DNA from: Dictyostelium discoideum
Taxonomy: Eukaryota
Reading direction: 5' to 3'
Length of the DNA stretch: 64,000 bases
NCBI GenBank assembly: GCA_000004695.1
Contig: CM000155.2
Coordinates: 352,001-416,000 of the forward strand
Of this stretch, positions 28,554 through 31,675 are shown piece by piece (position 1 is the stretch's first letter; each line of letters starts with the position of its first letter). A program made the position numbers and the translations under genes. A model generated the notes under the pieces. It made no database searches. It was not told the origin of the DNA and worked only from the letters and a program-made list of their open reading frames with translations.

Positions 28554-29585
28554 ATGATTAAAGAAGAAAATAAATTTCTTTTTTATATTTGGAGAAATTT
28601 ATATTTAAAAAATAAAATTTTACAACAAGTTAAATATTTAAATAATAATATTTTTATAGTTGAAATAAAAAGTAAAGAAGAGTTATTAAATCATAAATTT
28701 AGAGATTTAATAAAAGTTATAATTTATAATTCAAATGAAGATATTTGTAAAGGTGATTTACCATCAAATATTGTTAAATTATCATTTGGTAGAGGTTTTA
28801 ATAAACCAATACCAAGTGGAGCAATTCCTTTAACCGTAAAGTCAATAACATTTGGAATGTTTTTTAATCAAAAATTAACTTTAGGAATAGTTCCATCAAG
28901 TTGTAAATTATTAAAATTTGGTGAATTTTATAATCAAAATTTAATACCAAATCAATCAATTCCACCAAGTGTTGAAAATTTAGAATTTGGGTTTATGTAT
29001 AATGAAAAACTAATTAAAGGTTCAATTCCATCAAGTGTTACTTATTTAACATTTGGGAATCAATTTAACCAAATACTAACAGATGGAATCATTCCATCGA
29101 GTGTGAAAACACTGATATTCGGTGACAGTTTCAATTTACCATTATTTAAAAATGCAATTCCATCAAGTGTGCAAACCTTGAAATTCGGTTTAAAATTCAA
29201 ACAATATTTAAACAAAAATTCAATTCCACCAAGTGTGAAATCATTAACCTTTGGAAACGGGTTTAATAAACCATTAACCAATGAATCAATTCCATCAAGT
29301 GTTGAATCATTAACATTTGGTAATTGTTTCAATAGAGAATTACTACCAGGTGTAATTCCACCAAGTGTCAAATCATTAACATTTGGAAATGATTTTAATA
29401 AACCATTAACCAAACAATCAATTCCATCAAGTGTTATCTCATTAACATTTGGTAATAAATTTAATCAACCATTACCTGACGGAGTGCTACCTCCAAATCT
29501 TTTAACTTTAAAATTTGGTAACTCCTTTAACCAACCGAAATCAAATATATCAATTCCTCAAACTGTTAAATCATTAAATTTTTAA
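28554..29585 (+). CDS. FNIP-repeat-containing protein, the Dictyostelium-type FNxxIP ~22-aa repeat, with about 12 repeats
   Basis: Repeated units LxFGxxFNxPLxxxxIPSSVxxL (LSFGRGFNKPIPSGAIPLTVKS, LTFGNQFNQILTDGIIPSSVKT and others). It is a single exon. Confidence 0.85.
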   Translation: MIKEENKFLFYIWRNLYLKNKILQQVKYLNNNIFIVEIKSKEELLNHKFRDLIKVIIYNSNEDICKGDLPSNIVKLSFGRGFNKPIPSGAIPLTVKSITFGMFFNQKLTLGIVPSSCKLLKFGEFYNQNLIPNQSIPPSVENLEFGFMYNEKLIKGSIPSSVTYLTFGNQFNQILTDGIIPSSVKTLIFGDSFNLPLFKNAIPSSVQTLKFGLKFKQYLNKNSIPPSVKSLTFGNGFNKPLTNESIPSSVESLTFGNCFNRELLPGVIPPSVKSLTFGNDFNKPLTKQSIPSSVISLTFGNKFNQPLPDGVLPPNLLTLKFGNSFNQPKSNISIPQTVKSLNF

Positions 29586-29634: not shown

Positions 29635-31021
29635 TTAAAATCTTCCAGCTTGGTAGTCTTTAAAAGCTTGTTGAATTTCAGCTTCAGTATTCATAACGAA
29701 AGGACCATATCTTGCAACGGGTTCATTCAATGGTTTACCAGCTACTAATAAAAAACGTACACCTTGATCTGAATCACCAGCGATAACATCGATTCTATTT
29801 CTATCCTGACCACCTTGTAAAATACCAATTTGTGAGGTTTTAACTTCTTTTCCTTTTGCCTTTGGACCGAATCTAGCAGACCCTTCAAAAACGTAAACAA
29901 AAGCTTGATGATCATTTGGAATCTCTTCTGAAAATGTTGAACCTGGTGATAACTTAACATCTAAATATAATGGATTCGTTACGATTCCAGCGATTGGACC
30001 TGTAATATTTTTATAAACACCTGCAATAATTCTAGTTTTACCTCCACCCTGTTCATCAACTTCAGGTATATCTTTAGCGGGAATATCTTGATAACGTGGT
30101 TCCATCATTTTATGAGATTTTGGTAAATTTACCCAGAGTTGAAATCCCCAAACCACCTTATCACGATCAACAATTGGCATTTCTGAATGAATTATACCTT
30201 TACCAGCCGACATCCATGACACAGAATTTGCTTTTAATAATCCATAATTATGTTTATGATCTTTATGCTCCATAGTACCTCTTAACATATATGTTACAGT
30301 TTCAAATCCTCTATGAGGATGTGATGGAAATCCTGCTATATATTGATTTGGATCATCACTTTTTTTTTTTTTTTTTTTTTAATTATTAATAATTTTATTT
30401 GATTTAATTTAATTTATAAAAAAATAAATATTAAAATTTATTATTTACCTTTTAAATTCATCTAATAATAAAAATGGATCCAAGTCACTTATTGGTCCAC
30501 CAATAATTCTTCTTAATTTTACTCCTAAATTAAAAAAAAAAAAAAAAAAAATGGGATTAGTGGTTTTTCCTAAAAAATAAAAAAAAAATAAAATAATTAC
30601 CAGCTCCATCTGAAGTCATCATTCCAGTACTAACTTTACTAACTATTCTTGAACTCATTTCTATAATATTATTATTTTTATTTATATCCTCTTCTTCTTT
30701 AATTTTATTATTATTATTATTATTATCTTTTAATTTTTGTTTTTTATTATTTAATAAATTAATATTATTAATATTATTATTATTATTATCCTTTTTATTA
30801 TTATTACTATTATTATTTAATGGTTTAAAAGTATTTTGTTGTTCTTGTTGTTGTTGTTGTTGTTCTTGTTCCCTTTGCTGTTGTTGTAAATATGTAGTTG
30901 TGGTTGTAGTTGTTGAAGATAAAAAATAATATAGTAAAGAGGCTATTACAATTATAAAGATAATAGTATATTGATTTTTATATTTATTATTATTTGTTCG
31001 GTTATGTTTATGAGAAACCAT
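29635..31021 (-). CDS. Pirin (bicupin). The core model is join(30601..30658,30449..30524,29635..30358), 285 aa starting MSSRIVSKV. The frame stays open upstream to an ATG at 31021, which would add about 120 aa with a hydrophobic segment and a Q/N-rich linker (a longer-isoform hypothesis).
   Basis: LDPFLLLDEFK|...|SDDPNQYIAGFPSHPHRGFETVTYML...WMSAGKGIIHSEMP...LWVNLP...GPFVMNT matches human pirin (DPFLLFDEFKGG..GFPDHPHRGFETVSYLL...WMTAGRGILHAEMP..LWVNL...GPFVMNT). Donors are GCTG|GTAATT at 30600 and AAAAG|GTAAAT at 30448. Acceptors are atttag| at 30525 and aaaaag| at 30359. Exon lengths of 58, 76 and 724 nt keep the frame. Confidence 0.85.
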
Positions 31022-31675
31022 TAATGATATATTTATTGTATTATATATTTTTATAATTTTAAATATTTTATAGTCTTAAAACTATTTTTTTTTTTTTTTT
31101 TTTTATCATTTTATAATTTTATTTTTATACCCTCTGCAAATTTTAAAATGTTTTTTTTTTTTTATTTTATTTTATTTTTTTATTTTTATTTTTTTTTTTT
31201 TATTTTTTTATTTTTTTTGAAAAATTCTTTTTTTGGATCTGCAAACTCCGGAACCATAGATATTTGTCTTCTTGATTTATAAAGAACATAATAAATAAAT
31301 AATTAAATTTATTTGAAAAAAAATAAATAATAAAAAAAAAATAAAAAAAAATTTCTTTTTAAAAATACAAGAATATATACACAATCAAGAATAAAAGAAC
31401 ATTATATAATAAACATAAATGGATATAAAAAAAAACTTTTTGATTTATTACAAGTTTATGTATAAATTAATTAATTAAAAAAAGAAAATAAAAAAATAAT
31501 AAAAAATAAAAAAAATAAAAACTATTAATTTTTTTAAAATAATTTATACATATTTTTTATTTATAATTTTCTTTTTTTTTTTTAAAAAAAAATAGATATT
31601 TTTTCTATTTTTAGTTTTTTTTTTCTATTTTTTTATATTTTCTATTTTTATTTTTTTTTTTATTATTATTTTTTT

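Follow-up and report, generated by a model that had tools for sequence, protein, structure and literature searches.

A probable coding N-terminal extension with a predicted signal anchor on the pirin of Dictyostelium discoideum

The window analyzed here is a 64-kb stretch of DNA from Dictyostelium discoideum AX4 (contig CM000155.2) that carries, on its minus strand, a gene for pirin, an iron bicupin protein. A first-pass annotation of this DNA had proposed that the pirin reading frame possibly continues upstream of its canonical start (MSSRIVSKV, 30658) to an ATG at 31021 and that the added N-terminal part contains a hydrophobic anchor; the span it gave, 30359-31021, also takes in the 3' part of exon 1, intron 1, exon 2, and intron 2. 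The gene, in its long model, and the protein that it encodes are made up as follows.

31021..29635, minus strand: whole pirin gene, long model, three exons, stop codon included
31021-30601, minus strand: exon 1 of the spliced translation
30600-30525, minus strand: intron 1, GT..AG borders
30524-30449, minus strand: exon 2
30448-30359, minus strand: intron 2, GT..AG borders
30358-29635, minus strand: exon 3
31021-31019, minus strand: upstream (long-form) start codon, the first ATG past an in-frame TAA at 31078-31076
31021..30968, minus strand: codons 1-18, basic Asn-rich head MVSHKHNRTNNNKYKNQY, net charge +4, no acidic residue; predicted cytoplasmic tail
30967..30911, minus strand: codons 19-37, hydrophobic span TIIFIIVIASLLYYFLSST; predicted signal-anchor transmembrane helix
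30910..30659, minus strand: codons 38-121, low-complexity stalk, with a Thr run and then Gln/Glu (38-62) and an Asn/Lys-rich linker (63-121)
30658-30656, minus strand: internal Met122 codon (MSSRIVSKV), context tagaaATGa, G at -3
30655..29635, minus strand: pirin bicupin core, residues 123-406, interrupted by both introns

Reading of the frame confirmed 121 sense codons (M1 to E121) from 31021 down to the ATG at 30658, and the peptide is the one previously described, MVSHKHNRTNNNKYKNQY-TIIFIIVIASLLYYFLSST-TTTTTTYLQQQQREQEQQQQQQEQQ followed by an N/K-rich linker. The remaining five frames over the same 363 nucleotides (nt) contain from 3 to 35 stops. The frame did not stay open in any of 200,000 mononucleotide or 50,000 dinucleotide shuffles, and an analytic estimate gave a P of ~2e-6; a chance open frame is ruled out by these tests, as the first-pass annotation had argued, with the correction that the extension is 83.2% AT and not more than 85%. 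The corresponding values are 65.7% for the pirin coding sequence, 87% and 97% for the introns, and 90.7% for the upstream intergenic DNA. The 406-amino-acid (aa) spliced product from 31021 is identical to XP_635234.1/EAL61720.1/Q54EK6_DICDI ("pirin family protein"), and the 285-aa short form from 30658 is absent from a collection of ~15 billion proteins. Thus, the extension is already part of the reference gene model and is not a new proposal, while the idea of a real N-terminal part with a hydrophobic anchor is supported by the reference model, the conserved layout, the open frame, and simple transmembrane criteria. We consider it highly probable that the 363 nt at 31021-30659 are genuine coding sequence within exon 1 of the D. 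discoideum pirin gene.

Long forms of 399 to 406 aa are annotated in D. cf. discoideum, in a second D. discoideum strain, in D. dimigraforme, and in D. citrinum, and the open frame with its ATG and a conserved hydrophobic span was found in five genomes of the D. discoideum complex as well as in D. purpureum. We aligned the DNA of AX4 with that of the second D. discoideum strain, D. dimigraforme, and D. citrinum. All gap runs inside the extension, in the three genomes relative to AX4, were 3, 6, 9, 15, or 18 nt long; in the 350 nt upstream of the extension, gaps of 1, 2, 4, 5, 7, 8, 13, and 14 nt were present. The hydrophobic residues 19-36 were the best preserved part, with 17 to 18 of the 18 amino acids identical in the three other genomes and with mostly synonymous nucleotide changes. 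Identity elsewhere in the extension was 14 to 15 of 18 residues for the head and 29 to 49 of 59 for the Asn/Lys linker. The sequence ATCATTA-ATG at the long start was kept in all four genomes, and an element further upstream also aligned in the four of them amid intergenic DNA ridden with indels:

31140..31116, minus strand: conserved TTTGCAGAGG-GTATAAAAATAAAAT, TATA-like, ~100 nt 5' of the long ATG; candidate core promoter

The position of this putative box 5' of the long ATG agrees with a transcript that would include the extension.

D. purpureum is a more independent test of a coding extension than the comparison within the D. discoideum complex. Its annotated pirin (DICPUDRAFT_148704) is 281 aa long and begins at the core Met. 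In its DNA (GL870973.1; extension at L001 2704-3000), 139 in-frame codons are open upstream of this annotated start, and an ATG lies 99 codons upstream. The peptide read from there starts with a basic head and has the order MINYSSNNNNRSNYLSNKY-IIIIIFLVSLLIVNFLFL-PSNSV, an Asn/Lys linker, and then MASRTIAK; its hydrophobic span of 18 to 19 residues has a dG sum of -4.4, which is stronger than that of the D. discoideum span. Judging from this layout, the D. purpureum orthologue is probably annotated ~99 N-terminal codons too short.

In the P. violaceum lineage, the picture is different from that in group-4 Dictyostelium. Two pirin genes lie in tandem in P. violaceum, neither of them with the extension (L002 1248-2377 and 3001-4130). 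The metagenome protein P0011 (341 aa), in which a hydrophobic stretch, poly-T, and poly-Q precede MSKSRLV, was considered as independent proof of coding and was rejected: on its contig (L003, JGI 3300028160) the start is a TTG called in bacterial style, a TGA at 129-131 ends the frame, and there is no ATG. Additionally, bases 1 to ~120 of this contig are the reverse complement of ~141-260, a fold-back artifact of assembly or cDNA. The TTG start of P0011 should not be taken as a real N terminus. A further candidate, P0024 on L005, was ambiguous, with a GTG call and no ATG. We also observed that the annotated start of a third P. violaceum pirin copy (L011 1390-1500) follows a run of 65 open codons in which there are an ATG and MFFKFTYIFIFIIFLIKLL...QQQQLT, so that a 37-residue hydrophobic leader with an ATG is possible for this copy. 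Overall, group-4 Dictyostelium is the only group in which an extension with both an ATG start and an anchor stands on firm ground, and the homologous region of the sister violaceum complex looks like an untranslated leader.

These relatives provide the case for reading the D. discoideum extension as untranslated too, with only the 285-aa pirin from 30658 being made and the open frame representing a 5' leader or a relic. In L003, from a relative within the P. violaceum complex, the region is part of a transcript that is spliced relative to P. violaceum, and it lacks an ATG and is closed by the TGA; in P. violaceum itself it carries stops; and the annotations of D. purpureum and most other dictyostelids take the short start. 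Against this stand the stop-free run of 121 codons in 83% AT DNA, with the P of ~2e-6 given above, the retention of frame, ATG, and hydrophobic span in the five D. discoideum-complex genomes and D. purpureum, and the conserved TATA-like box, which is located upstream of the long ATG and not within the extension. With these observations taken together, we regard an untranslated extension as highly improbable.

The hydrophobic span is the only one in the protein. For residues 19-37, the Kyte-Doolittle mean over 19 residues was 2.06 and the biological-hydrophobicity sum was -0.57 kcal/mol, and the next best window anywhere in the protein scored +9.6; residues 19-37 are a single N-proximal span of sufficient length (~18 residues or more) to cross a bilayer. 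The charges flanking the span were +4 on the N side and 0 on the C side in D. discoideum and +2 and -1, respectively, in D. purpureum, and this asymmetry, with a positive N flank in both species, favors a topology with the N terminus inside. An AlphaFold2 model built on a 53-sequence alignment showed a helix over residues 13-62, with a predicted local distance difference test score (pLDDT) of ~86 across the hydrophobic core, a pLDDT below 50 over residues 64-106 (a disordered stalk), and an all-beta fold over 126-388, with a confident bicupin from residue 123 onward (pLDDT of 82 to 98).

The core is that of an intact pirin. PF02678 (Pirin) matched residues 150-242 with 100.8 bits (cut-off of 26.1) and PF05726 (Pirin_C) matched residues 297-406 with 105.3 bits (cut-off of 27), while the human pirin structures 4hlt and 1j1l aligned over residues 134-402 with an expectation value (E) of 1e-59. 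The 3-His-1-Glu site is present as HPH (H179, H181) and HSE (H223, E225), which align with the HPH and H-A-E motifs of the human protein, whose metal ligands we take to be His56/His58/His101/Glu103. The four columns of H179, H181, H223, and E225 were invariant in the 53-sequence alignment. Peroxisomal targeting, which was considered because a neighboring gene encodes a peroxisomal-type enzyme, was rejected, as the C terminus (...YQAGRF) is not a type 1 peroxisomal targeting signal.

The reading that we favor, with some reservation, is that the coding extension adds a head, a signal anchor, and a stalk to the protein and that the pirin domain is lumenal or extracellular. The parts of this reading differ in strength: that the extension confers membrane or secretory targeting is likely, whereas for a type II topology with a lumenal pirin domain we see the arguments as evenly balanced. 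Translation would start at the upstream AUG at 31021, and the basic head of 18 residues would remain in the cytosol. The hydrophobic helix of 18 to 19 residues would then escape cleavage and act as a type II signal anchor that keeps the N terminus cytosolic, and the disordered stalk of ~85 residues, rich in Thr, Gln, Asn, and Lys, would be translocated together with the catalytic pirin domain. The iron bicupin would in this way be held on a flexible tether in the secretory or endocytic lumen or at the cell surface, where it might act as a metal-dependent (quercetinase-type) dioxygenase or as a redox protein on lumenal or extracellular substrates. The sequence itself shows the open frame, the identity with the reference model, the conservation, the hydrophobicity and charge asymmetry of the span, and the intact metal site, whereas we infer that the upstream AUG is used and likewise infer the membrane insertion, the topology, the compartment, and the activity.

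Several observations weigh against this reading. Most of the extension indels fall within AAT/CAA trinucleotide repeats; slippage by 3 nt occurs in such repeats whether they are coding or not, and the argument from gap lengths in multiples of three is therefore weaker than it looks. Likewise, T-rich and AT-rich DNA readily translates to "hydrophobic" peptides rich in Phe, Ile, and Leu, and the hydrophobicity sum of the D. discoideum span favors insertion only marginally. The pirin core has no Cys and a single sequon (N283) that D. purpureum does not share; thus, the core itself bears no lumenal mark. BLASTP did not align the D. discoideum extension with that of D. purpureum, so sequence homology of the two was dropped and only a shared architecture is claimed. 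Outside group 4, Cavenderia fasciculata and Heterostelium album have just 4 and 15 open codons upstream of the core, and in the P. violaceum lineage the homologous leader is transcribed yet lacks an ATG (L003) or is interrupted by stops (L002). Finally, the literature search found no transcript, ribosome-profiling, proteomic, or localization data for D. discoideum pirin, no Logan transcript contig carried the long protein, and a look-up of the contigs that encode it had none on record. Searches of the literature for Dictyostelium pirin, Q54EK6, the DDB_G identifiers, and secreted or transmembrane pirins yielded nothing useful; a "pirin-like protein" (DDB0219410) that is listed in a microarray table as down-regulated on Pseudomonas cannot be tied to this gene.

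The same N-terminal features can be read in two other ways. If the hydrophobic segment were a cleavable signal peptide, the mature pirin would be soluble and secreted, lysosomal, or lumenal and would not be tethered. Small residues (SSTTT) follow the hydrophobic core, the layout of P0020, the product of a related amoebozoan mRNA, is that of a classical short signal peptide, and several pirin representatives bear signal-peptide-like leaders. However, by established signal-sequence rules, a charged n-region of 18 residues and an h-region of 18 to 19 residues are typical of signal anchors and exceed those of usual signal peptides, and we consider cleavage unlikely. The second possibility is mitochondrial targeting, either by a bipartite presequence with a stop-transfer anchor or by an outer-membrane signal anchor that leaves the pirin facing the cytosol. 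A basic head without acidic residues followed by a moderately hydrophobic span, as seen in both D. discoideum and D. purpureum, would suit such a route, but the head has almost no hydrophobic residues from which to form an amphipathic helix. The span also lacks the C-terminal positive cluster that, according to established targeting rules, is usual in outer-membrane signal anchors, and the Thr run right after it is more typical of secretory-pathway stems. A mitochondrial destination appears very unlikely.

A different kind of alternative concerns the number of products. Two isoforms could be made, either through leaky scanning on a single mRNA or through the use of two transcription starts, with the AUG in weak context giving the anchored form and Met122 giving a soluble cytosolic or nuclear pirin. 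The long-form ATG lies in the context tcattaATGg; a T occupies position -3 of the first ATG in both lineages, and a G or A occupies that of the second. Met122 is itself conserved, and all short dictyostelid pirins begin at it. The stretch from one ATG to the other contains no further ATG, whatever the frame, in any of the five genomes compared, including the independently diverged D. purpureum. When codon order was shuffled, the probability of such an absence, P(0), was 0.003 and 0.004, and among other AT-rich 360-nt segments of long open reading frames (ORFs) in the window only 3 of 89 (1 of 19 loci) were free of ATG. Under dinucleotide-preserving shuffles, however, the absence was not significant (P(0) of 0.41 and 0.24), because TG is rare in the low-complexity extension anyway. 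A T at -3 was found in 4 of 19 first ATGs of long ORFs in the window and is not exceptional, and there are just two independent lineages to compare. ATG depletion therefore fails as proof of leaky scanning and remains a lead, and two isoforms strike us as a tentative idea that is on the improbable side. Leaky scanning is compatible with the anchored pirin favored above and does not exclude it. In its fullest form, which we put forward just as speculatively, a single mRNA with two AUGs (31021 in weak and 30658 in strong context) separated by a 363-nt AUG-free stretch would yield both a lumenal or surface pirin and a soluble one, an arrangement that would have arisen in group-4 dictyostelids when a former untranslated leader was recruited as coding sequence. 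If true, a single gene would supply a metal dioxygenase or redox protein to both sides of a membrane.

Other features were observed around the gene. A GC-containing island, TGTTCTTTATAAATCAAGAAGACAAATATCTATGGTTCCGGAGTTTGCAGATCC, lies at 31288-31235 on the minus strand in intergenic DNA of ~91% AT and is kept throughout the D. discoideum complex; a core that resembles it, ATATCT...TTCCGG, lies upstream of pirin in D. purpureum (L001 ~2508-2533), P. violaceum (L002 ~2765-2800), and L003 (~130-160). This island may be a cis-regulatory element; an Rfam scan of the region upstream of pirin gave no match. In AX4, an ATG at 31109-31107 on the minus strand (aaaATGataaaaaaa...) opens an upstream ORF of ~13 codons, 88 nt 5' of the long start; the other three D. 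discoideum-complex genomes of the alignment lack this ATG. It lies just 3' of the TATA-like box, and for this reason the upstream ORF may be outside the transcript. On the 3' side, the convergent neighbor is an FNIP-repeat gene (28554-29585, plus strand), with 49 nt between its stop codon and that of pirin (29635), so that the 3' untranslated regions of the two genes must overlap or be extremely short. In C. fasciculata, the pirin model (P0012, L009 1501-3925) is 627 aa long with a C-terminal Acyl_transf_1 domain (malonyl-CoA:ACP transacylase-like), which is either a real fusion or two neighboring genes merged by annotation.

The physiological role of pirin is debated, with quercetinase, redox sensor, and transcription co-regulator functions proposed, and the characterized pirins are soluble nuclear or cytosolic iron proteins. 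If the signal anchor is real, pirin chemistry would be placed in the secretory or endocytic lumen or on the surface of a bacterivorous amoeba, which would point to a role as a dioxygenase of small molecules (polyphenols, polyketides, or bacterial metabolites) and not to a nuclear one. D. discoideum is genetically tractable, and the anchoring of its pirin can be tested there. The additions made here are comparative support for the long model, the probable misannotation in D. purpureum, a topology prediction, and a weak lead toward dual initiation; the practical outcome is that the long RefSeq model is supported, and the effect on the field would be small unless localization or the use of two isoforms is borne out.

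Human pirin (PIR; 1J1L, 4HLT) is one of the closest known references for the core, with which the D. discoideum protein shares the bicupin fold, the Pirin and Pirin_C domains, and the metal ligands. It is a soluble nuclear and cytosolic protein of 290 aa without an N-terminal hydrophobic segment, whereas the D. discoideum protein has 121 extra N-terminal residues, in which a transmembrane helix is predicted to precede a disordered stalk; among solved structures, none matches this extension. The closest relatives outside Amoebozoa are bacterial pirins of the YhhW/YhaK/quercetin 2,3-dioxygenase type, with 53 to 58% identity in the core and with matches to PDB entries 2p17, 6d0p, and 7te5 (E of 1e-39 to 1e-54). 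In a quick neighbor-joining tree, a SAR324 bacterial sequence fell among the amoebozoan pirins, and the dictyostelid and myxogastrid pirins are 53 to 58% identical to bacterial ones; this closeness could reflect slow evolution or an old horizontal transfer.

To our knowledge, all characterized pirins are soluble, and the remark in the first-pass annotation that a membrane-tethered pirin would be unusual holds for these proteins; it does not hold for the sequence databases, in which leader-bearing pirins are already present. Bacterial pirins are ~275 to 290 aa long and mostly leaderless, with a minority that has twin-arginine translocation (Tat) and/or lipobox leaders (e.g., P0105, P0133, P0139, and P0250). 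We observed signal-type leaders in the apparently bacterial P0105, P0133, P0139, P0238, and P0250, with a twin-arginine motif in most of them and a lipobox-like Cys in P0105, P0133, P0238, and P0250 (e.g., MRPTRRELVVGTGALAAGTLLGC); by their sequence, the five look like exported or lipoprotein pirins, and no description of leader-bearing bacterial pirins was found in the literature searched. A hydrophobic N-terminal 12-mer was present in 7 of 134 cluster representatives with the DPF motif and a Tat-type leader in 3 more, so that about 7 to 10 of 134 to 150 pirin cluster representatives (~5 to 7%) have export-type N-terminal leaders overall. A poly(A)-tailed RNA sequencing contig of a Physarum-related amoebozoan (Logan SRR7971547) encodes MSIFSLFFFIVLICFATHTTTH... 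(MSIFSLFFFIVLICFA...), a signal-peptide-like leader fused to pirin. Together, the cluster representatives and this amoebozoan mRNA indicate that exported pirins are uncommon but not unique. The Tat and lipobox leaders belong to a prokaryotic export route, whereas the layout predicted for the D. discoideum protein is that of a eukaryotic signal anchor with a low-complexity stalk.

Outside the pirin family, the same layout of a short basic tail in the cytoplasm, one N-terminal hydrophobic span, a flexible Ser/Thr-rich stem, and a globular catalytic domain is found in type II enzymes of the secretory pathway such as the Golgi glycosyltransferases. This likeness is only architectural, with no sequence relationship, and the insertion and topology of the D. 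discoideum protein are predicted. Metal-cupin oxidases or dioxygenases with a site of action outside the cytosol are known in the germins, the germin-like proteins, and the secreted quercetinase of fungi. Their existence shows that the secretory pathway can accommodate cupin chemistry, but these proteins belong to cupin families other than Pirin/Pirin_C and are secreted by means of cleaved signal peptides, untethered. Judged against these systems, the uncharacterized D. discoideum pirin appears to add a eukaryotic form, with a signal anchor and a stalk, to the exported pirins, a theme that is uncommon but already exists.

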